From positions 137,371-201,370 of the forward strand of contig CACJXQ010000001.1 of the NCBI GenBank assembly GCA_902597385.1: DNA of 64,000 bases, given 5' to 3'. The notes under the pieces were generated by a model, which was given only the letters and a program-made list of their open reading frames with translations, ran no database searches and was not told where the DNA came from. This DNA is from an uncultured Pseudomonadota bacterium. Lineage in GTDB: Bacteria; Pseudomonadota; Gammaproteobacteria; Ga0077536. Positions 5,262 to 35,676 of the stretch are shown piece by piece. Each line of letters starts with the position of its first letter. Position 1 is the stretch's first letter. A program made the translations under genes and the position numbers.

Positions 5262-6050
5262 ATGCGGGTAATTTCAGAGAACTTAACGCCTAATTACCGA
5301 AAAAACCATCTGAAGAGTAACTTGAGTGATGTAAATCAAGGGCAGGTTGTTAAACTGATTCAACTCCTGAACGATGGATCCTATAATGCCGTCATGAAAT
5401 ATTTTTTGTTTGGAAGAAGCCAAAATGGCCTAGCTATTGACGCAATATCTTTTGGTTCAACTGGTAAACATGTGTTGATACTTGGTGGGGTACATGGTGA
5501 CGAAATAGAAGGCGTTGCATTAGTAAAGTTTTTGGTTGCAGAACTTAGTGAAAACTTAGATTTTCCTCTGAAAGTCACCCTTGTGCCATGTCTAAATATC
5601 GATGGATTTTTAGCGGGGACTCGACAAAATGCAAATAATGTCGATTTGAATCGAAATCTTCCAACTGACGATTGGAACCCCACTGCATTCAATGATAGGT
5701 ATTCCCCTGGAGGTATGGCCAACAGCGAGCTTGAAAATAAGGCCTTGGTAGAATTTATCAAAACACAAAGGATAGATTTTATTTTATCACTCCACTCGTT
5801 TTCTCGTTCTTTACTGAATGTAAACGGTAATTGCGAACCAGTGTCTGGCTTAATAAGTGATCTTACTGGTTTGCCGGTTGAGAAATCCATCGGCTACCCA
5901 ACGCCTGGATGTTTAGGGACTTACGCAGGGTTGGAAAGAAATATCCCAACGATCACTTATGAACTTCCTCGAGGCTCTGATATTCGCGAAATTATCAAAC
6001 TGCATGGAAAGAGCATCAAGGAAGCTTTAAAAGTCTACGCATCCTGTTGA
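5262..6050 (+). CDS. M14 family zinc carboxypeptidase / murein peptide amidase A-like
   Basis: HxxE zinc motif in LILGGVHGDEIEGV, DLNRNLP motif, later H in LSLHSF. 262 aa. Ends with a normal TGA stop (6048-6050). Confidence 0.7.
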   Translation: MRVISENLTPNYRKNHLKSNLSDVNQGQVVKLIQLLNDGSYNAVMKYFLFGRSQNGLAIDAISFGSTGKHVLILGGVHGDEIEGVALVKFLVAELSENLDFPLKVTLVPCLNIDGFLAGTRQNANNVDLNRNLPTDDWNPTAFNDRYSPGGMANSELENKALVEFIKTQRIDFILSLHSFSRSLLNVNGNCEPVSGLISDLTGLPVEKSIGYPTPGCLGTYAGLERNIPTITYELPRGSDIREIIKLHGKSIKEALKVYASC

Positions 6051-8152: not shown

Positions 8153-9655
8153 GTGTCTTCGGAAAATACAAGAGACTTCATAGCTGCACTTGATCTAGGC
8201 TCCAACAGTTTCCATCTTATAGTAGCAAGAAGAAATAATGCCGGTTATCGAGTGATTGATAAACATAAGGAAACCGTTCGTTTAGCATCAGGGTTTGATG
8301 GGCAGGGTAATTTAAAGCAAGAAGCTATAGGTAAAGCAGTCAAAGCTTTGGAAAGGCTGGGAGAAAGAGTCCGTAAAATACCAAACAGTAATCTCCGGAT
8401 AGTGGGAACGAACACTTTGCGCAAAGCAAAAAATGCTGATGTTTTGATCGAGGCGGCAGAGCACGTTTTGGGTCATTCTATAGATGTGATAGCGGGTGCC
8501 GAAGAGGCGAGATTGATTTTTTCTGGTGTTACCAGAGGTTTGAATTTGGAGGATAGAAAATATCTGGTTATCGACATCGGTGGTGGTAGTACAGAAATAA
8601 TCGCCGGATATTGCGAAAAGCCTGAACTACTAAATAGTCTACACATGGGTTGTATTAGCGTTACTCTAAACCATTTCTCAAAAGGTATGTTATCACGCGA
8701 ATCCTTTGAGGTTGCGCATATGTCGGTGGCTCAAGAGTTAGAGCCTATTCTGCGATCTTATAAAGAATATGGTTGGGATGAAGTTATAGGTTCCTCTGGA
8801 ACAGTCCTGGCGATAAGAGATATGCTGGTGAAAAATAATTGGGATAGAGAAGGTATCACTATCAAAGGTCTCAATTGCCTAACTGAGTATTTGATTGAGA
8901 AGGGTTCTACTGAAGCATTGAATCTCAAAGGCCTGTCTAATAATCGTAAAGGAATTTTACCTGGTGGGCTTGCGATCTTAAATGGTTTTTTTAAAGGAAT
9001 GGCAATTGAAAGATTATCGGTAAGTGATAATGCTTTAAGGGAGGGAGTGTTAAATGATCTGGTTGGCCGTATAAAAAATCAAGATTACCGCGATATCACA
9101 GTGAAGAAACTAGTGGAGTTGTATGAGCTAGATGTTTCTCAATGTGAAAGGGTGAATGACTCAGCGTTTTATATATTTAACTGCATAAAAGACTCTTGGG
9201 GGTTGAGTAAGATAGAACATTTATGTTTTTTAAATTGGGCTGCCTGCCTTTCGGAAATTGGACTCGCGATTTCATTCAGTCAATTTCATAAGCATGGTGC
9301 CTATTTAGTGCAGAATCTAGATATGCCGGGTTTTTCCGAGAAGGAAAAGAAGATTTTATCTTTGCTAGTTAGAGCGCAACGACGAAAGTTTCCTATTAGG
9401 GAGTTTCTTCACCTGAATCTGTCTGAAAGAGAAAAGCTTGTTAAAATCAGTGTGATACTTAGGTTGGCTCTGTTGCTACATCGGTCCCGATCCGATTTTC
9501 CGTTCCAACACTGTGGCTTTGAAGCAAGCGATAACTCATTAAATATCCGGTTTCCAGTTGACTGGTTGAAAAACCATTCTTTAACTTTAGCTGATCTTCG
9601 AGCGGAAAAGGAATATCTGAGAGCTATAGATGTTGATTTATGCTTTAATTGCTGA
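8153..9655 (+). CDS. ppx: Exopolyphosphatase (Ppx/GppA family)
   Basis: GTG start. ASKHA phosphate motifs DLGSNSFHL and DIGGGSTE. 500 aa with C-terminal HD-like region. Convergent with ppk1, stops 5 nt apart. TGA stop at 9653-9655. Confidence 0.85.
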   Translation: MSSENTRDFIAALDLGSNSFHLIVARRNNAGYRVIDKHKETVRLASGFDGQGNLKQEAIGKAVKALERLGERVRKIPNSNLRIVGTNTLRKAKNADVLIEAAEHVLGHSIDVIAGAEEARLIFSGVTRGLNLEDRKYLVIDIGGGSTEIIAGYCEKPELLNSLHMGCISVTLNHFSKGMLSRESFEVAHMSVAQELEPILRSYKEYGWDEVIGSSGTVLAIRDMLVKNNWDREGITIKGLNCLTEYLIEKGSTEALNLKGLSNNRKGILPGGLAILNGFFKGMAIERLSVSDNALREGVLNDLVGRIKNQDYRDITVKKLVELYELDVSQCERVNDSAFYIFNCIKDSWGLSKIEHLCFLNWAACLSEIGLAISFSQFHKHGAYLVQNLDMPGFSEKEKKILSLLVRAQRRKFPIREFLHLNLSEREKLVKISVILRLALLLHRSRSDFPFQHCGFEASDNSLNIRFPVDWLKNHSLTLADLRAEKEYLRAIDVDLCFNC

Positions 9656-13170: not shown

Positions 13171-15528
13171 TTAAGGCAAGGGTCCTGGTTTTAGGAAGCC
13201 TCGTATGACGTTTTCCATGAGCTTGGACACGTTATTCTTATAATCATTATGTGAGAGGCTACCGCACCACGCCAAAGAACCCGGAGCAAACACGGCACCG
13301 TCGTTAGGTGTCTTGTAATAAATCATGTCGGCTCGCACCATGGGGTTTTCATCTCCACCTCCATAATATCCTCGGCAGGTGAAGTGTATTTCCTCGTTGA
13401 CTTGCATCATAAGGTCCGTATGGCCTTCTGATCGTGCTAGCAAAAAAGCCTCATGGGGGGTGCCAAATTCCAAGTCGTAACGATCAATTTCTAGGCCTGC
13501 AGCACCACCCCCAACTAATCCAAAGTCACCTATTATTTCATCGCTCCCTATCCCTTTGAACATCCAAGCACATTCTTTTCGCTTGGAATCGGGTTCTCTT
13601 CTATAGTATGAGGATACATCGAAACCATAGGCTGTAAATGTTAATCCGCAGACCTTAGTTGGTATTCGCCCACGAGCCCTCCACATGCCGCCAAATTTAC
13701 CATCAAAAGCATTGTTGTATTCTCCCGGGTTTGCGGTCCAGGCTCTGGTTCCAGCTTCTCCTTTTCGAACTTCTATAATATTGCTGTCATCAGGATGGTA
13801 TTGACTAACCCAATAAAAACCGTCGGCGCCCAAGTACAGCCACCTTCCTCCTGCCTGTTGGTAGGCTTCGTATGCAGTAAGCATATTTTCAGAGGAATAT
13901 TCTGGATGACTCCCTGTTAGTACTACAGGGTATCTATTGAGGAGATCAACGCCCTCTCGATCTAGATCTTCATCTGTATGTACATCGTAATCTATCCCCT
14001 TTGCCTCTAACCAATCTGTGAGGTGCAGATCGGCATTTAATTGCCATAGAGAAGGAGAAAGCCAATGGCGATATTTAGGTCGCATATTGAGGATAGGTCG
14101 TAGCCTAGAGGAGAAGCACACTCCACTTCCGTCTGAATGACAAGAGTATGTGGATAGCCCGTACTCTCTATGTTCATTCAAATACAGATCAGAAGCTTGC
14201 ATAATCGGTACGCGTCCGGAGAGTAACTCTGCCACAACCGAGTTTGTTGCTAAGTTATCATTAGAATAAGCCATGTAGGAATTGGTGGGTATTATTAAGC
14301 AAACCTTTGCGGTGGTCTGGCCCTTCGGAGGTCTTACAAAGAATGGTACATAATCCTCTGTTTCGGGACTTTCGATACCATTTATTCTCAGTCTCGCTCC
14401 GTAAACACCACTGCGTAATTTGCTAGGTAGCTTATAAGCGAAACTCTCTTCCCAACGTGCATCATCGATATCGTCATCATGAAAGTGAATAGCGCCATAC
14501 TCCTGCGGTACATGATGATAAACGATATCATCACTTGTCCAGTTATAACCCGTCATCCCCCGGGCAGGTAAATTCACAGTAAATCCGTTTATTTTATTGG
14601 GTGAGGTATCTAATATTTGGCAAGAAGATATTTTATCGGTGATGTTCTCATGAAAATCCCATGCCCCTACGATAGAATTTCTGAGTTCCGCGTCACAACC
14701 GTCTATCCCCCTGGCCAAGGAATCAATATCATTTTTTTCTAGAGCTCGATTGGCAAATCGCGGCCTATCTATCTTTCCGTTATACAATTGAGTTTGTTCC
14801 GGAAGAGAGAACGGTTCGAGAGCTTCCTTGTACATGCCACCTGTCAGGAATCTCCCAGATTTTACGGATCTTGTGCTAGCAGCCATGAGGAGAGGGGCAG
14901 CATTCTCCTCAGGCATTAATCTGACGCTTGATGTGACAGCTCCTGTCGTAGAACTAGATGGGTGTAGGAGAGAAAGACCCAATCCTCCGTTAGTCGGAGT
15001 CACTACTGGGACTTGGTAGACTCGCACTCTCTTTGTTTTGGAGTCAAAAGTGACTGCTGCGAGATACCAAACTTTGCGCATCAATGGTTTTTTACTTGAG
15101 ACAGTTTCTACCTTGCCTTTTTTCCCTCCAATCCAACAAGATAGACAGCCCTTTTCGTCTATGAACATCCCGAAACCGGTGTTATTTTTTTCTGACCACT
15201 TTGTGATTATTCCCTGAACACCTTTTTCGGGGGTTGTGGGAAATATAAAAGCTTGGAGTGTGAAACTATCCACATTCATTCTGTGATCGTGTTGAAAGCA
15301 AGCGTAGGAGCCACCATGAATTTTTTGGTTTTTCCCTTTGTATTTCTTGTTGCAGGAGGAACGAACTACTTTTTCTTTGAACCCTGGCCCCTCGGGGTTT
15401 GTATCCCCGTGGATTAGTCTTACGATGTCTACCTGATAATCTTCGTTTTTTTCAGAGTTGACATAAAATTTTATTTCTTCCCCGGGACAAACCGAGTATT
15501 TGTCGCTGTAACCAGTAATTCTTAGCAT
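13171..15528 (-). CDS. N,N-dimethylformamidase large (beta) subunit-like protein
   Basis: 785 aa. N-terminus MLRITGYSDKYSVCPGEEIKFYV and overall length match my memory of the DMFase beta-subunit family (LamG-like N-domain plus large C-terminal domain). Preceded by a small-subunit-sized gene. Confidence 0.65.
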   Translation of the reverse strand: MLRITGYSDKYSVCPGEEIKFYVNSEKNEDYQVDIVRLIHGDTNPEGPGFKEKVVRSSCNKKYKGKNQKIHGGSYACFQHDHRMNVDSFTLQAFIFPTTPEKGVQGIITKWSEKNNTGFGMFIDEKGCLSCWIGGKKGKVETVSSKKPLMRKVWYLAAVTFDSKTKRVRVYQVPVVTPTNGGLGLSLLHPSSSTTGAVTSSVRLMPEENAAPLLMAASTRSVKSGRFLTGGMYKEALEPFSLPEQTQLYNGKIDRPRFANRALEKNDIDSLARGIDGCDAELRNSIVGAWDFHENITDKISSCQILDTSPNKINGFTVNLPARGMTGYNWTSDDIVYHHVPQEYGAIHFHDDDIDDARWEESFAYKLPSKLRSGVYGARLRINGIESPETEDYVPFFVRPPKGQTTAKVCLIIPTNSYMAYSNDNLATNSVVAELLSGRVPIMQASDLYLNEHREYGLSTYSCHSDGSGVCFSSRLRPILNMRPKYRHWLSPSLWQLNADLHLTDWLEAKGIDYDVHTDEDLDREGVDLLNRYPVVLTGSHPEYSSENMLTAYEAYQQAGGRWLYLGADGFYWVSQYHPDDSNIIEVRKGEAGTRAWTANPGEYNNAFDGKFGGMWRARGRIPTKVCGLTFTAYGFDVSSYYRREPDSKRKECAWMFKGIGSDEIIGDFGLVGGGAAGLEIDRYDLEFGTPHEAFLLARSEGHTDLMMQVNEEIHFTCRGYYGGGDENPMVRADMIYYKTPNDGAVFAPGSLAWCGSLSHNDYKNNVSKLMENVIRGFLKPGPLP

Positions 15529-15581
15529 TTTTTTGCTCCCTTAGATTCTGATTTTTCGAGAGACCGGTCTATTCTTCTTCT

Positions 15582-15995
15582 CTAAGAATTATAGCCGTAC
15601 TCTTTCAAGAGATCGGTGATTCTCTTTTTGAAAATCGCGTGCTCGCAGCTGTCCTCGCTCGGATAGGATTTAGAAAGAATTTTGACAGGTTTTCCTCTTA
15701 TACCGCTGACAATCCCAATACGGTAATCGGTATGGGGAACTCTGCATACTCGGACGTATTTGCCTTCCATAGGATGACGTCTGAATTTATCTATTACCCT
15801 AGCTAGGTCCTCGCTGTGTTGGACTGCTGATTTGCCTTTCTTGCCAGGAATTCCTATAGGATTATGAAGATGTTCATTTATAAGTTCCTGACGTTTAACC
15901 TTATCAGTCAACAGAGGCAGGATGTGAGTTCTTGTTATGAAGTCATCGGTTTGGGTGTATCCCCGGTTTTCTTGTACACCAGTCTTTTTAGCCAT
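15582..15995 (-). CDS. Small protein in the position of the DMFase small (alpha) subunit
   Basis: 137 aa, immediately upstream (53 nt) of the large-subunit-like gene, as in dmfA1-dmfA2. The C-terminal pattern ...YRIGIVSGIRGKP...EDSCEHAIFKKRI resembles what I recall of the small subunit, unverified. Confidence 0.4.
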   Translation of the reverse strand: MAKKTGVQENRGYTQTDDFITRTHILPLLTDKVKRQELINEHLHNPIGIPGKKGKSAVQHSEDLARVIDKFRRHPMEGKYVRVCRVPHTDYRIGIVSGIRGKPVKILSKSYPSEDSCEHAIFKKRITDLLKEYGYNS

Positions 15996-16175
15996 TTGCT
16001 ACCCCTTTTTCTTGAGTTAACAACACGGAAAGTCACTTAGGCCAGTGGCTAGTAAATCAGCATGCATAAACGGCGTCCTTGAGTCTCCTATTTATGACCG
16101 TACCAGACATTTGTAAATAGTAAAGTGTTTTTTTATTAATAGTTATCTAAAAAACTATCTAAAGTTAGGTCATTT

Positions 16176-16538
16176 TTAGGAACTTGAGGATTTCTCTATA
16201 AATTTTACTGCCAGCGAAGGTGGCCTGGCAATAATGGCCTTCCCTTTTGTGATGACAACCGGTCTTTGTAAGAGCTCAGGAGCCGCGGCTATGGCTTCGG
16301 CTATTCGTTTATGTTTGTTTGATTTGCCGACATTTCTTGGTTCATCATTAAAGCTCTGTCTCATTAGACTCTCGGGATTTTCCAACTCTAATAACGAGAT
16401 TAAATTGAGAATTTCTTCTTCCGACAGAGGATGAGTGAGATAATTCCTCATAACAAATTGAATACCGGTGGTTCTTACCAGGTTAAGTAGCTCTCTAGAT
16501 TTTGAGCAGTCGGGGTTGTATAAAATTGTGTTCTCCAT
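16176..16538 (-). CDS. ArsC/Spx-family arsenate reductase-like protein
   Basis: 120 aa. N-terminal ILYNPDCSKSR (catalytic Cys motif) and LLQRPVV near the C-terminus. Confidence 0.8.
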   Translation of the reverse strand: MENTILYNPDCSKSRELLNLVRTTGIQFVMRNYLTHPLSEEEILNLISLLELENPESLMRQSFNDEPRNVGKSNKHKRIAEAIAAAPELLQRPVVITKGKAIIARPPSLAVKFIEKSSSS

Positions 16539-16549
16539 TCTTATAGATT

Positions 16550-17458
16550 ATGTTCAGCCTGAAGAAAACTCAAATCTCTATTGTTCGGAGGCAAAAAAGA
16601 TTGAGACAGTTAATAAATAGAGTCTTAGGCGTGAAAAACGCGCCTATTCTAAAGGCAAAGTACTATAAGCAACGTAGTGTTTTTAAACCAAAAAATCTTC
16701 TTCGCGAGGCGAGAAGACAACTGGGTGTAGCTTTTGGTTCAGTTCCCGACTTCGTCGTGTTAGATCCTGATGGTGATATTTTAGATCATCTAGCTAAAAC
16801 AGGCGAGGTGACTTTAAATCCTTATTGGGCATGTTACCACACGAAGTTATACGAGTTTAAGTTAGGCAGATCTAAGCTGGGTATCATCGGCCGAGCAGTG
16901 GGAGGCTCCTTTGCTGTTCTACTAGCCGAACAACTCTTCGCTTCGGGATGTAAATTTATTATTAACATCACATCAGCCGGTAAGATAGAAGATAATTTGA
17001 AAACCCCGAGCTATATTCTTGTTAATAAGGCATTGCGGGACGAAGGAACAAGTCTTCATTACTTGCCCCCTGCCGATTTTGTTTCTATAAGACCCGAGCT
17101 GCTCTCTGTTTTTTCGTTAGCTAGTTGGAGGAAGGAGTTGCGAGTGAAGGTTGGATCTGTCTGGACAACAGATGCGCCTTACAGGGAGACAGCTGGCGCA
17201 ATAGAATCAGCAAAAAGACGGGGGCTATTGGCGGTCGAAATGGAAACAGCTTCTTTGTACGCCTTCGCGGAGGCCACCTCTAATTTTGTAATTTCATTTG
17301 CGTTTGTCACCAATGAAATGGCTCAAAAGGGCGAAGACTTTGAGAAAGGCGATTCTGGGGGTGCCATAGACGCCCTAGAACTCATCGAGGAGACGGTTGG
17401 CGTCCTTAATGATTTTCTATTGAGCCGAGGCCGCTTGAAGTCGCAGGAGGCTTTCTAA
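16550..17458 (+). CDS. Nucleoside phosphorylase family protein (PNP/UDP_1)
   Basis: SVFKPKNLLREARRQ N-terminal motif and AVEMETASLYAFA. The true start may be GTG at 16631. The 3' end overlaps the convergent selenoprotein gene by 42 nt. Confidence 0.7.
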   Translation: MFSLKKTQISIVRRQKRLRQLINRVLGVKNAPILKAKYYKQRSVFKPKNLLREARRQLGVAFGSVPDFVVLDPDGDILDHLAKTGEVTLNPYWACYHTKLYEFKLGRSKLGIIGRAVGGSFAVLLAEQLFASGCKFIINITSAGKIEDNLKTPSYILVNKALRDEGTSLHYLPPADFVSIRPELLSVFSLASWRKELRVKVGSVWTTDAPYRETAGAIESAKRRGLLAVEMETASLYAFAEATSNFVISFAFVTNEMAQKGEDFEKGDSGGAIDALELIEETVGVLNDFLLSRGRLKSQEAF

Positions 17459-18079
17459 GGTAGCGCTGGGCTCTGGTCTAGAGGTGTAGTCTGGATCTGC
17501 TTCAACCTCGAAAATTGTGCCACCTTTTCTCACTATGATTCTGGAAGGAATCGGTAAGGTCCAACTCTCATCTCCATTTGTTTGGGCGAGGTTGATCTTA
17601 AACCCTTCATAAATTGATTTGATATTCGATGGTATTTGGAAGCGCAGTCCTAGTTCAGCGGCATAGGTGTTTCCTGGGTCACTTAAGATGTCAAATCCCA
17701 AAGAATGCGACGCTACCATTTGAGAATTGAATGAGACTTTTTGAGGACTAAGCGCTAGCAGAACCGTGTTTGTTTCTTCTATCTTTCCTAAGGTTGCTTG
17801 CAGAGCTTCCAGCTCTGCGTTGCAATATGGTCACCAGTGCCCACGAAATATGGTTATCACTAAATTTTTTTTTGCCAACAGCTCGTTTGAAGCGATCTCA
17901 ATACCGTCTTGGTTCTTTAACTTGAAAGCTGGTAGAGGGCTGTTGGATTTAACTATACCATCAAGGATACCTGACTCGCGTAGCTGACTCGTGGCTCTGA
18001 GCATCTCCGAGAGGGTTTTTTGGGGAATATTTTCTGCTGCTTGACGCTTCATTGCGTCTAGCTTTTGTTTCAAGTTCAT
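17417..18079 (-). CDS. Peroxiredoxin-like (AhpC/TSA, PRX_like2-type) probable selenoprotein; 220 codons read through in-frame UGA (Sec) at 17831-17833, motif W-U-P-Y-C
   Basis: ORFs 17831..18079 and 17417..17719 are in the same frame, with no other stop in the 111 nt between them. The joined translation ...NLVITIFRGHW-U-PYCNAELEALQATLGKIEETNTVLLALSPQ...SHSLGFDILSDPGN... is a continuous thioredoxin-fold Prx-like protein. A SECIS-like hairpin follows the UGA. Confidence 0.75.
17794..17825 (-). promoter_or_regulatory. Bacterial SECIS-like stem-loop downstream of the in-frame UGA
   Basis: mRNA 5'-UUGC-AAC-GCAGAGC-UGGAA-GCUCUGC-AA-GCAA-3'. Perfect 7-bp upper stem (17818-17812 / 17806-17800), 5-nt apical loop containing GG, 4-bp lower stem. 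The upper stem starts 12 nt after UGA. Confidence 0.65.
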
Positions 18080-18094
18080 TATGGTTGTTTCTCC

Positions 18095-18136
18095 CCAAAA
18101 AGTGATGCTAGCCGGCTTAAATAGGAGCCGGCTAGC
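18095..18136 (-). terminator. Rho-independent terminator after the 76-aa gene
   Basis: Perfect 11-bp inverted repeat GCTAGCCGGCT / AGCCGGCTAGC (18107-18117 / 18126-18136) with an 8-nt loop. On the minus-strand RNA it is followed by AUCACUUUUU. Confidence 0.7.
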
Positions 18137-18159
18137 GCAGATTCCCTAGTTTTTAACCA

Positions 18160-18390
18160 TTAGTTTAGTAGATTGAGTGCATCTTCGAAATACTTAGTTG
18201 CTAATTGAGCATTTGAATGCTCATTTTCAATACCTAGGTCGCGCAGTTTTGTTACCTCGGTTTTGACTGTTTCGGAAACGTTAGACATCTTTAGTTTCTC
18301 ATTTACAGCTTTGATCTTGTCGCTCATACAGCCAGCGTAACTAATCGAAGTAAATGCCAGTAATAACAGGGTAAGATATAGTTTTTTCAT
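18160..18390 (-). CDS. Small exported protein (signal peptide, possible lipoprotein)
   Basis: 76 aa. MKKLYLTLLLLAFTSISYAGC... then a helical charged body. Followed by a strong terminator. Confidence 0.5.
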   Translation of the reverse strand: MKKLYLTLLLLAFTSISYAGCMSDKIKAVNEKLKMSNVSETVKTEVTKLRDLGIENEHSNAQLATKYFEDALNLLN

Positions 18391-18473
18391 TTATTAAGAC
18401 TCCAGTTTTAATATTTTGGTTCTTAAATACTACGTCAGAAAGCTTAAAAAATATCAATATTTTTCTATTTTAG

Positions 18474-19313
18474 CTAGAAATCTTTAGAACTATGACGTTC
18501 TTTTAATTGTTCTTCATCAGGCCCCCACGTTTTATTCACTCTACGGCCTCTCACTACTGCTGGTCTTTTTTCTATCTCTTTCGCCCATCTAACAACGTTA
18601 TTGTAGGACGCAACGTCGAGAAACTCTGCGGCCTCGTAGATATTGTGTAGTACAAGATATCCATACCATGGGTAAGTTGCGATATCAGCAATAGTGTAAT
18701 CGTTTCCGCAAAGATATTTTCTGTCGGATAGGTTTCTATTAAGTACATCTAGCTGGCGTTTTACTTCCATACTAAATCTGTTGATAGGGTATTCGTATTT
18801 TTCGGGTGCGTACGCATAAAAGTGACCGAAACCTCCGCCTAGATAGGGTGCACTACCCATTTGCCAAAAAAGCCACGATAGACACTCAGCCATTTTGTCT
18901 TGTGATTTAGGGTAGAAGTGTCCGAATTTTTCGCCTAAATAGAGTAGAATTGCGCCAGATTCGAAAATCCGCACATTTGGGGAAACACTTCGATCTAATA
19001 GGGCGGGAATTTTAGAATTCGGATTTATTTCCACAAATCCGCTACCGAATTGTTGTCCTTCGCTTATATCGATCAAAAAAGCATCATATTCTGCGTCACT
19101 CACACCTAACTCTAATAGCTCTTCAAGCATTATTGTTACTTTGACACCGTTTGGGGTGCCTAAAGAATGTAATTGCAGAGGATGCTTCCCCGTAGGAAGC
19201 TCCTTATCATGGGTTGCACCGGCTATGGGTCTGTTTATGTTTGCAAATTTTCCACCACTCTCGGTATCCCATCTCCAAACTTTTGGCGGCGTGTAAGTTT
19301 TGTCTTCACTCAA
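18474..19313 (-). CDS. yghU: Nu-class glutathione transferase / GSH-dependent disulfide-bond oxidoreductase (YghU-like)
   Basis: 279 aa. N-terminus TYTPPKVWRWD...GGKFANINRPIAGATHDKELPTGKHPLQLHSLGTPNGVKV is characteristic of YghU. Confidence 0.85.
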   Translation of the reverse strand: MSEDKTYTPPKVWRWDTESGGKFANINRPIAGATHDKELPTGKHPLQLHSLGTPNGVKVTIMLEELLELGVSDAEYDAFLIDISEGQQFGSGFVEINPNSKIPALLDRSVSPNVRIFESGAILLYLGEKFGHFYPKSQDKMAECLSWLFWQMGSAPYLGGGFGHFYAYAPEKYEYPINRFSMEVKRQLDVLNRNLSDRKYLCGNDYTIADIATYPWYGYLVLHNIYEAAEFLDVASYNNVVRWAKEIEKRPAVVRGRRVNKTWGPDEEQLKERHSSKDF

Positions 19314-19763
19314 TTTGCTGTTCTCCTTTAGAGTTTTTTAATAACCCGTTTACTGAATCCGTCTCTAGCGGCTCCATTTCCGCAATTAGGATGTTATCTT
19401 ACCAGATTGTATTTTTCTAATACCTGGTATCAAACATTATGTTGAGTTTGATTGCAAAAGTCTTTGTAGGGGAAAGTCAGTTAAGCTAAATCTGTGAAGG
19501 GGTCGTATTTTTAATAATTTGGGGGCTGGTGATACCTCGACAATTATCGCAACTACTTGCCCTTGCGGCCTTAATTTATTGAGGTAATAACTTAATATTA
19601 TTTTAGAATCTGAAAGTCTGGTTGAGAGCTAGTAGATATAAGTTTTGTAAGAAATGAAATAAATGTCTTTTGCAGGGAATTCAAATCTGGGATATTTTTA
19701 GTTTAGCAGTTGTTGTTTAAGTCCGGGATCTCTAGGGGTTAGATGAGTTAAAAGGGGGCAATA

Positions 19764-20648
19764 ATGGGAGATCAAATTAAAGTAGAACCTTTGAATGTAG
19801 TTTTTGGTGCTCGAGTTTCAGGTGTTAAGTTATCTTCAATATCAGATACTGATTTTGAAGAACTGTACCAAGCCTGGTTAGAGTATGGTTTGCTTATCTG
19901 TGAGGCTCAATTTTTAAGTCATGATGAGCAAATAGAGTTTGCGCGAAGATTTGGGGAACTGGAATTTGAATTGGCCGCTCTAAGTAACGTGTTAGAGGAT
20001 GGGAAGTTACGTTGTGACGATGGCTCTGATGATGTGATGAATATTTTGAAAGGTAACATGGATTGGCATCACGATAGTACCTATATGCCGATTCAGGCTA
20101 AAGGAGCGGTTTTTTCAGCAGAAATAGTACCTTCTGAAGGTGGGGAGACCGGGTTTGCTGATATGAGGGCAGCCTACAGTGCGTTGGATCTTAAAATTCA
20201 AAAGAAATTGATGGGTCTCAGTGCTTACCACTCTCTGCACTATAGCCAAAAAAAATTAGGCTATGCCAGTCAGAGTTTAAAGGGAAAAGGCATTAATGAT
20301 GATGGTGATCTCGATGGTTACGGGTTCCATGACGGACCCGTATCAATTAGACCGCTGGTCAAAGAACATCCCGAGACTGGATGTCCGAATCTTATAATTG
20401 GACGACATGCTTACAATATAATTGGGCTATCTGAAAAGGAATCGTCAGAGCTCCTTGAGTATCTGAAAGTTTTTTCTTGTAGACCTCCCAGGATTTATCA
20501 TCATCAGTGGCAACCCGGGGACACAGTGGTTTGGGATAACCGGAGACTTATGCACCAAGCCACTCCTTGGCCCACCGATCAGGCAAGAGTAATGTGGCAT
20601 AGTAGGATAGCCGGAGACCCTGAAACCGAATCTGCTCTACATGACTAA
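19764..20648 (+). CDS. TauD/TfdA family Fe(II)/2-oxoglutarate dioxygenase
   Basis: 294 aa. HxD iron motif in DWHHDSTY, distal H/R region (VVWDNRRLMHQA). Confidence 0.8.
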   Translation: MGDQIKVEPLNVVFGARVSGVKLSSISDTDFEELYQAWLEYGLLICEAQFLSHDEQIEFARRFGELEFELAALSNVLEDGKLRCDDGSDDVMNILKGNMDWHHDSTYMPIQAKGAVFSAEIVPSEGGETGFADMRAAYSALDLKIQKKLMGLSAYHSLHYSQKKLGYASQSLKGKGINDDGDLDGYGFHDGPVSIRPLVKEHPETGCPNLIIGRHAYNIIGLSEKESSELLEYLKVFSCRPPRIYHHQWQPGDTVVWDNRRLMHQATPWPTDQARVMWHSRIAGDPETESALHD

Positions 20649-33858: not shown

Positions 33859-35676
33859 ATGAAAGTGGAAGATCTGAGAAACATTGCGATTGTAGCCCAT
33901 GTGGATCATGGGAAGACGACTTTAGTTAGCGAACTGCTCTGGCAGTCAGGTTTCCAGTCCGACGAGAAGAGTACTCACCTTTTAGATAGTAATGCTTTGG
34001 AAAAAGAGAGAGGAATAACGATTCTTGCTAAAAATACAGCTCTGACCTGGAAGGGTGTGAAAATAAATATGGTTGATACCCCAGGCCATGCGGATTTTAG
34101 TGGTGAAATAGAGCGTATCTTGTCCATGGTAGATTCGGTTTTGGTCTTAGTAGATGCGGTGGAGGGGCCGATGCCGCAGACACGCTTTGTGACAGAGATG
34201 GCTTTGTCAAATGGTTTGTCTCCGATTGTAGTTATAAATAAATGTGATCGGCCTGCCGCTCGGCCCTCCTGGGTCCTAGATAAAACCTTCGATCTTTTTG
34301 AACAGCTGGGCGCTACAGATTCTCAACTAGATTTTCCAACAGTCTATTGTTCTGCCACTGAGGGGTACGCAAGGTTGGATCCTCTCCACAAAAATGAAGA
34401 CATGGCCTGTCTCTTAGATGGTATTCTTGAATATGTCTCTCCGCCTCACGTTGAGGAAGGTCCATTCCAAATGCAGATAAGTGCCCTTGATCACTCGGAC
34501 TATGTTGGAACTATTGGTATCGGAAAAGTTGTAAGAGGCGACCTAGAGAAAGGAACTAGGGTAGAGGTATTAAGCTTTGACGGTAAATCTAGGAGCTCAA
34601 AAGTCAATGAAATATTTGGGTATGAAGGTTTGAATAGAGTGGCAATCGATAAGGCTTTAACTGGGGATATAGTGGCCATCACGGGACTAACCGAATTAAA
34701 AATATCGGATACCGTCTGTGATATGAATTTCCCAGAGCGCCTTCCCGGGTTAAAAGTTGAAGAGCCGACCATAACTGTTTCAATGGATGTTTCTGATTCC
34801 CCCTTTGCATCAGTAGAAGGCGATTTCGTTACCAGTCGACAAATTCTGGAACGTTTACAGCGTGAAGTGGTTCATAATGTGGCACTAAGAATGACAACTG
34901 TTAGCGATTCATCGGCCATCCTGGTTTCCGGTAGGGGGGAACTACATCTTTCAGTTTTATTTGAAACTATGAGGAGAGAAGGGTTCTCATTTTGCGTTGG
35001 ACGGCCGCAAGCAATTGTTCGGACTATAGATGGAGAAGCCAGTGAGCCTTATGAAGTCTTAGTAGCTGATGTTCCGCAAGAATTTCAGGGCCGGGTTATG
35101 GAGCAACTGGGTAACCGAGGTGGTAGGGTGCAGGATATAGGAACGAGTGGAGGTGGCGATTGCAGACTAGAGTATCTGATTCCTTCGAGAGGCCTCATCG
35201 GTTATAGGACCGAATTCATGACAAGTACAAGCGGGCAGGGCAGGCTTAATGCAAGATTTGAGAAGTATGGACCTATAGAGAAATTACGGAGGAAAAATCG
35301 CAACAATGGTGTTTTAGTCTCAAAAGAAAATGGCAAGTGTTCTGCATTTGCTCTTTTTAATTTGCAAGAGCGAGGAAAAATTATTGTGATGCCTGGAGCT
35401 GAGATATTCGAAGGGATGATCGTAGGCATTCATTCCCGAGATAATGACTTGGTTGTGAACCCGATAAAAGGGAAGCAATTGACAAATATTAGGGCTGCTT
35501 CGAGTGATGAGAATATCGTTTTGACACCACCCATAGAGTTTACCTTAGAGCAGGCGCTGGAATTTATTGAGGATGATGAGTTGGTAGATGTCACACCAAA
35601 AGCTATACGGTTGAGAAAGAAAATACTTCGTGAATCGGATAGGAAAAGATTAGAGAAAAAACGCGAAACTCTATAA
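33859..35676 (+). CDS. typA: Translational GTPase TypA/BipA
   Basis: G1 [11 protein letters not shown]3 DTPGHADF, G4 NKCDR. 605 aa with EF-G-like domains. Confidence 0.95.

Follow-up and report, generated by a model that had tools for sequence, protein, structure and literature searches.

The DNA analyzed here, called the window, is a stretch of 64,000 nucleotides (nt) from an uncultured gammaproteobacterium of the lineage Ga0077536 (assembly GCA_902597385.1, contig CACJXQ010000001.1, positions 137,371 to 201,370). The interval 17417..18079 of its minus strand is very probably a single gene encoding a 220-residue selenoprotein of the family called "Prx-like 1" or "Prx-like thiol:disulfide oxidoreductase" (Prx, peroxiredoxin), and the UGA at codon 83 is predicted to encode selenocysteine (Sec) by means of a bacterial Sec insertion sequence (SECIS) (Table 1). 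A probable selenoprotein had been proposed at this locus in an earlier note, made from the letters of the DNA. The proposal gains support from the pairing of Sec with Cys among homologues, from a hairpin that belongs to the TGA forms, and from a downstream frame that is intact and constrained.

Two Open Reading Frames Share One Frame with a Single Internal TGA

The locus appears as two minus-strand open reading frames (ORFs). One (17831..18079) encodes 82 amino acids (aa), with the C terminus ...VITIFRGHW followed by TGA, and the other (17417..17719) encodes 100 aa in the identical frame. The 111 nt that separate them (17720-17830) are free of stop codons. The earlier note had read the two ORFs as one frame of 220 codons, and all of its statements on this part of the sequence were verified. 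Between 18079 and 17417, the joined frame is interrupted by one internal TGA only, in the context FRGHW-U-PYC, and the first ATG 3' of the TGA is found 37 codons on, at 17719. The tryptic peptide spanning codon 83 of the window protein is GHW-U-PYCNAELEALQATLGK. Elsewhere in the window TGA is an ordinary terminator, as the same note had held: among the 54 long ORFs, 12 end in TGA, including those that stop at 6048-6050 and 9653-9655. A window scan for other same-frame ORF pairs split by one TGA found none that was gene-like besides 17417..18079. Because TGA ends these 12 ORFs and no other window gene needs TGA read-through, the genetic code is taken to be standard.

Codon 83 Alternates between TGA and Cys among Homologues

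Homologues were sought in ~5.8 billion proteins and in a scan of bacterial and archaeal genomes, one per GTDB species, that retained the 80 closest loci. The protein search returned no full-length copy of the joined window protein. Full-length database homologues were 39-46% identical and carry W-C-P-Y-C, except for two with W-S-P-[FY]-C; the closer matches (45-66% identity) were exclusively C-terminal fragments of 122-131 aa. The U of the window protein aligned with the first Cys of W-C-P-Y-C, and homology ran on both sides of it, which confirms the alignment proposed at the outset. In the contigs that encode the fragments, an 82-95-aa ORF without a Pfam match precedes the fragment, and the gene was split in every related contig examined. 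When these contigs were read through, 4 distinct metagenome lineages proved to have FRGHW-TGA-PYC, each at the same position. The mis-annotation that the earlier note ascribed to standard ORF calling at this locus therefore recurs in relatives, with an 82-95-aa ORF and a 122-131-aa "AhpC-TSA" fragment in place of one gene. The window gene itself is divided by ordinary callers into an 82-aa ORF and one of ~100-125 aa.

The expected alternation of TGA and TGC was seen in the genome loci, where codon 83 is TGA in 60/80 and TGC/TGT in 20/80. The hosts of the TGA form include Gamma- and Alphaproteobacteria, Acidobacteriota, Myxococcota, Rokubacteria, Verrucomicrobiia, Desulfobacterales, Nitrospinaceae, and others. 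The frame stays open for 120-140 codons past the TGA in 59 of the 60 TGA loci. The remaining one, L044 (from 10241), has a second stop: a TAA arrives prematurely, 39 codons past the Sec-TGA. This copy is either in decay or wrongly assembled, and no other of the 60 shows the feature.

A third state of the motif was also observed. In P0001 and P0002, the two closest full-length database homologues (43-46% identity), Ser occupies the Sec/Cys site (W-S-P-F/Y-C), and they presumably represent a redox-altered form.

A Hairpin Downstream of the UGA Is Conserved in Sec Forms

The RNA 3' of the UGA reads CCAUA-UUGC-AAC-GCAGAGC-UGGAA-GCUCUGC-AA-GCAA (17830..17794). Its upper helix begins 12 nt 3' of the UGA, and the upper stem-loop alone folds at -11.7 kcal/mol. 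RNAfold draws it as GCAGAGCU-GGA-AGCUCUGC, an 8-bp stem that can equally be counted as 7 bp closing a UGGAA loop, with UUGC/GCAA on either side. The published bacterial SECIS consensus specifies a loop of 3-9 nt on a stem of 4-16 bp, a G at loop position 1 or 2 with G/U after it, a UGA-loop distance of 16-37 nt, and a minimum free energy (MFE) of <= -7.5 kcal/mol (PMC13188914). The window hairpin falls within the consensus on all four criteria: its stem is 7-8 bp with the loop UGGAA/GGA, the loop has G at position 2 (or 1) and then G, the spacing is 19-20 nt, and the MFE of -11.7 compares with the limit of -7.5.

Conservation was assessed by comparing 65 distinct Sec-form sequences with 20 Cys forms. 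The stem (nt 16-22/28-34) is fully paired in 53/65 Sec forms and has 5-6 pairs in the others, whereas Cys forms have 3-5 of the 7 pairs. Explicit pair counting gave 96.9% paired cells for the upper helix over the 65 Sec forms, and its variation consists of A-U/G-U and G-C/G-U swaps at two pairs and five C-G->U-A double changes at a third. The hairpin is thus kept where codon 83 is TGA and missing where it encodes Cys, as the earlier note had suggested checking. That note had described the geometry of a SECIS from a 7-bp upper stem with a 5-nt loop 12 nt after the UGA, together with a 4-bp lower stem. The upper element held up and is conserved, but the lower stem is paired in only 60.8% of cells across the family and is specific to the window; it was ruled out as a conserved part of the element and, judged by these pair counts, is probably not a selected feature.

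The synonymous sites within the stem provide a separate contrast between the two forms. The Glu codon is GAG in 65/65 Sec forms vs. 9/17 Cys forms (Fisher p=7e-7), the Leu codon is CTG in 65/65 vs. 7/20 (p=1e-10), and the Ala codon is GCT in 61/65 vs. 0/18 (p=1e-14). The frozen codons of the Sec forms persist over loci of 41%-73% GC. Because only the Sec forms have these synonymous sites frozen, the A-E-L-x-A-L peptide does not account for the hairpin; the codon contrast across this range of GC likewise ruled out the hairpin as a by-product of AELxALQ.

A covariance model (R1) built from 63 Sec-form loci, with the window and its nearest relative (L011) left out, scored the window site at 57.2 bits (E 8.5e-19), the only significant match in 64 kb. 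The weak second match (8.3 bits, E 1.8) is to the other strand of this hairpin, which is palindromic. At the homologous sites, the 20 Cys-form loci scored 9.4-26.6 bits with the same model, so the covariance-model check outlined in the earlier note separates the window site from the Cys forms. The 39-nt unit of UGA and SECIS has 86% mean column identity and is near-identical across at least eight phyla.

For some Sec-form members (L004:503-541 and L019:1786-1824), RNAfold favors an alternative register, CUGCAA/UUGCAG, around a weakened upper stem, and this register competes with the conserved 7-bp helix.

Predicted Sec Is Assigned to a Thioredoxin-Like UxxC Center on a Peroxiredoxin Fold

Profile searches of the joined protein were performed with Cys put in at position 83. 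They matched Pfam AhpC-TSA (PF00578) over aa 48-189, on both sides of the TGA (E=1.3e-18; 67.6 bits, cut-off 26), and Redoxin (E=1.1e-14). The joined protein fell far under the NCBIfam cut-offs for thiol peroxidase (30 bits vs. 140), SelL_rel_redox (NF040769; 22 vs. 120), ResA (18.6 vs. 170), and DsbE (17 vs. 123). The best sequence-profile match in the PDB was 2cx3 (E=3e-16), and ResA structures matched with E=1e-8 to 1e-12.

Structure was examined in the AlphaFold model of a Cys homologue, P0006, which is 42% identical to the window protein (pLDDT 93). Compared with BCP/AhpE peroxiredoxins (5epf, 3hjp, 1xxu), the model gave target-normalized TM-scores of 0.87-0.89 and has the Prx-type thioredoxin fold. 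Residue 83 stands directly before helix 84-94, and two extra helices are present at the N terminus. Arg180 is invariant and precedes a β-strand; its position suggests that it would be the equivalent of the catalytic Arg of Prx.

The UGA had been placed by the earlier note at the redox Cys of a peroxiredoxin-like protein. The AhpC/TSA family and the correspondence to the first Cys of W-C-P-Y-C stand, but the profile alignment does not put U at the peroxidatic position of Prx. Aligned to solved BCPs, U falls on the Thr/Ser of T/SxxC, Cys86 falls on the peroxidatic Cys (BCP/PrxQ), and Arg79 stands where the motif Pro does. The canonical Prx motif PxxxT/SxxC, with the redox residue at the peroxidatic (C-terminal) position, was not found in the window protein; the thioredoxin-like UxxC motif is present, as W-U-P-Y-C and not as TxxU. 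Because of this alignment, U is assigned to the N-terminal position of a UxxC center of the thioredoxin type rather than to the canonical peroxidatic position. The placement of U on Thr/Ser fits the division in the literature between Sec-Prx (TxxU) and Prx-like proteins (UxxC). Cys86 is presumed to be the resolving partner, forming a selenenylsulfide with Sec83.

These features are consistent with the following scheme. The hairpin at nt 16-34 downstream of UGA-83 would act as a bacterial SECIS, with SelB-GTP and Sec-tRNA(Sec) binding its G-containing apical loop. On arrival of the UGA in the ribosomal A site, Sec would be inserted without termination and a further 137 codons translated. We infer this SelB-dependent step from the conserved RNA features and the established bacterial pathway. 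The product would have the thioredoxin fold of a BCP/PrxQ-like Prx with an N-terminal two-helix extension, as the homologue model indicates. Sec83 would lie just before the active-site helix and Cys86 one turn later, creating the UxxC center. By analogy with thioredoxin-like proteins, the chemistry is likely to be a UxxC selenolate/selenenylsulfide cycle, and we infer that the center would alternate between its selenolate/thiol and selenenylsulfide states as it reduces a substrate, either a disulfide or a peroxide.

Orthologues in Related Genomes Are Linked to Sec Machinery Genes

Three gammaproteobacterial contigs from metagenome-assembled genomes (L013, L015, and L017) carry a cluster of Sec-trait genes around a Sec-form orthologue (Table 1). 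In all three, selA and selB lie 3-6 kb upstream of the orthologue, and a tRNA-Sec gene ends 30-145 nt before its start; 2.6-3.2 kb separate selA-selB from the tRNA-Sec gene. The tRNA-Sec was identified by ARAGORN (anticodon tca) and by Rfam RF01852 (62-66 bits). On the other side of the Prx-like gene, L015 contains an ORF with Pyr_redox_2 and AIRS domains, an Ndh-SelD fusion. The order in some gammaproteobacteria is selA-selB-(two ORFs)-tRNA-Sec-prxL(U)-...-ndh/selD. The implication drawn in the earlier note, that the source organism would carry selABCD, gains indirect support only, from this linkage in relatives. One conceivable, if rather doubtful, interpretation is that a horizontally mobile "selenocysteine trait island" has the Prx-like gene as its main, and perhaps its sole, client. 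The Sec form and its SECIS would then have spread by transfer and not by repeated origin from Cys forms, and the window copy would be a dispersed descendant.

Alternative Readings of the UGA

Several observations count against assignment of the locus as a selenoprotein gene. Rfam gave no match over the whole window (gathering score) or over 17650-17950 (E <= 10). As far as we are aware, Rfam lacks a general model for bacterial SECIS elements, so this null result is uninformative. In tblastn searches with Escherichia coli SelA, SelB, and SelD, none of selA, selB, and selD was found within the 64-kb window, and the window contains no tRNA-Sec and no tRNA genes at all. A weak match to SelB at 33859-35676 (a 25%-identical GTPase) is TypA/BipA and was rejected. 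The single-sequence fold of 66 nt is not significant (z=-1.32; 24/200 shuffles fold as well or better), so the significance of the hairpin comes from relatives only. Finally, the family is graded "predicted with high confidence" and is not experimentally verified (PMC13188914), and no literature report of selenium incorporation or enzymatic activity was found for any member.

The full-length protein could also arise without selenium, by a reassigned code (UGA = Trp/Gly), near-cognate read-through, or insertion of Cys. Conservation over the full length needs only read-through and not Sec as such, and the lack of Sec machinery genes in the 64-kb window would agree with this explanation. However, the standard use of TGA in the window, where no other gene needs read-through, speaks against reassignment, and in homologues without TGA the site is Cys, or Ser in two, but never Trp or Gly. 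The downstream hairpin fits the model of a SelB-dependent SECIS, and orthologues are physically linked to selA-selB-tRNA-Sec. Decoding without selenium is therefore judged very unlikely.

Still less credible is a nonsense pseudogene, in which a change of TGC/TGT to TGA inactivated a Cys-type Prx-like gene and left the two ORFs as decaying remnants. The two fragments given by gene callers here and in related contigs, the absence of sel genes from the window, and the second, premature stop of L044 are what this explanation has in its favor. Against it, 60 genomes spread over many phyla have TGA at the same codon, 59 of them with an intact frame downstream, and the RNA hairpin is selected at synonymous sites in TGA forms only. 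The comparison with the nearest genome relative, the 89% identical orthologue L011 from single-cell genome AG-365-F14 (assembly CACDEI01), is also contrary to decay. Of the 137 codons 3' of the TGA, 107 are identical, 19 differ synonymously, and 11 differ non-synonymously, whereas the counts 5' of the TGA are 58, 12, and 12, respectively. By these codon counts the downstream part is under purifying selection and no less constrained than the upstream part, and a pseudogene is excluded on that basis. The downstream frame decay that the earlier note had named as evidence of a pseudogene was accordingly not seen.

Two separate small genes, or a deliberate 82-aa truncated product with the hairpin as a by-product of A-E-L-x-A-L-Q, can be dismissed as scarcely plausible: GAGCU/AGCUC (Glu-Leu and Ala-Leu codons) is intrinsically self-complementary and some Cys forms have a partial 5-bp stem, but each fragment has only part of a thioredoxin fold, the junction is crossed by both the Pfam domain and the modeled fold, the first ATG after the TGA (17719) is 37 codons away, and Cys forms with E-L-x-A-L use other codons and pair at 3-5 of 7 positions.

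Gene Neighborhood

The features of the locus and its surroundings are collected in Table 1. No sigma-70-like promoter was found between the terminator-like hairpin (18107-18136) and the ATG of the predicted selenoprotein gene. The neighborhood (13171-20648) contains several redox/detoxification families. A convergent PNP_UDP_1 neighbor is also present in metagenome contig L001, where a DMF_alpha gene is found near the orthologue.

Table 1. Features of the predicted selenoprotein locus, its neighborhood, and linked clusters in related contigs
Feature	Coordinates	Strand	Details
Complete predicted selenoprotein coding sequence	17417..18079	-	ATG 18079-18077; 220 codons including Sec83; terminal TAG 17419-17417
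In-frame UGA, codon 83, predicted to be read as Sec	17831..17833	-	Residue 1 of the U-P-Y-C redox motif
UGC codon, Cys86	17822..17824	-	The Cys of the UxxC center; invariant in all aligned homologues
Putative Shine-Dalgarno-like GGGGAG	18091..18096	-	11 nt 5' of ATG; read off the sequence
Predicted SECIS upper stem-loop, GCAGAGC-UGGAA-GCUCUGC	17800..17818	-	nt 16-34 (U of UGA = 1); 7 bp, 8 if U23-A27 closes; G24 G25 in apical loop
UGA and predicted SECIS unit	17795..17833	-	Covariance model of Sec-form sequences
Extended hairpin including 4-bp lower stem	17794..17825	-	UUGC 17825-17822 / GCAA 17797-17794; RNAfold -15.1 kcal/mol
PNP_UDP_1 phosphorylase-family gene, convergent	16550..17458	+	3' end overlaps selenoprotein 3' end by 42 nt (17417-17458)
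Terminator-like hairpin	18107-18136	-	11 bp, 8 G-C, then T-run; between upstream ORF and selenoprotein start
Upstream 76-aa ORF	18160..18390	-	
ArsC-family protein	16176..16538	-	C-S-K-S motif
GST-like protein	18474..19313	-	
TauD-family dioxygenase	19764..20648	+	
N,N-dimethylformamidase beta-subunit-like protein	13171..15528	-	
Sec-trait cluster, gammaproteobacterial contigs from metagenome-assembled genomes	L013:3344-10642; L015:3970-14994; L017:5149-10633		

Comparison with Known Systems

Re-annotation of the mis-split gene is correct, and its product is an ordinary member of a known family and not a new one. Because standard calling splits the gene, protein databases hold only halves of a widespread marine/soil selenoprotein. 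The practical value is in annotation, and joining the ORFs also flags the source organism as a probable user of Sec. To a family already known from 2005-2008, the window contributes a further member, and it opens no new question.

The window protein shares with ResA/TlpA/DsbE and SelL-related proteins a W-C-x-x-C-type motif at the N terminus of the active-site helix. Unlike ResA/TlpA/DsbE, it has no evident signal peptide or membrane anchor, and the structural match of the P0006 model to these proteins is weaker than to Prx (TM-score normalized to the model, 0.47-0.54). The fold is common to the family and to BCP/PrxQ and AhpE peroxiredoxins (TM-score 0.87-0.89), with Cys86 on the peroxidatic Cys. 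Relative to canonical Prx, Sec occupies the Thr/Ser position, Arg79 replaces the motif Pro, and the CxxC spacing is thioredoxin-like; the window family has in addition an extra N-terminal helical hairpin of ~45 residues and an insertion with NGDxSWTLP. Sec-Prx proteins have TxxU, whereas the window family has UxxC.

The predicted SECIS resembles the E. coli fdhF-type element and the bSECISearch model in being a stem-loop within the coding region directly 3' of the UGA, with G[G/U] in a small apical loop ~20 nt after it. It differs in being a short, perfect helix of 7-8 bp whose sequence is near-invariant across phyla. The window hairpin has no sequence resemblance to the fdhF SECIS, and its stem has no bulged U.

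The closest known system is the Sec-containing Prx-like family, and the statement in the earlier note that this family was already established is borne out by the catalogued sequences. Predicted bacterial Prx-like selenoproteins were described by Zhang and Gladyshev (PMC2398784, PMC1088965, PMC1794560, PMC13188914). A "Prx-like protein" family with UXXC was reported from the Sargasso Sea selenoproteome in 2005 (PMC1088965). The Global Ocean Sampling (GOS) study of Zhang and Gladyshev in 2008 defined "Prx-like 1" as pfam00578 with UxxC, comprising 225 sequences (PMC2398784), and the name "Prx-like thiol:disulfide oxidoreductase" is used in a 2026 review (PMC13188914). Prx-like 1 and the window protein both have PF00578 and UxxC, come from marine sources, and combine a TGA in frame with a hairpin 3' of it. 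In the GOS dataset, the entries between the headers "#Prx-like 1" and "#Prx-like 2" include read JCVI_READ_1565530; over 189 aa it matches the window protein at 74% identity (E=3e-111), and both carry FRGHWUPYCNAEL, NGDESWTLPIPSR, and ADPDYT. The Prx-like 1 bin is heterogeneous, and other members (e.g., ...RGHWUPYCRRQL...) come from different subfamilies. Because the read is listed under Prx-like 1, the orthologous group has been catalogued since 2008; nothing material distinguishes the window protein from Prx-like 1, and what is new in the window copy is its particular sequence.

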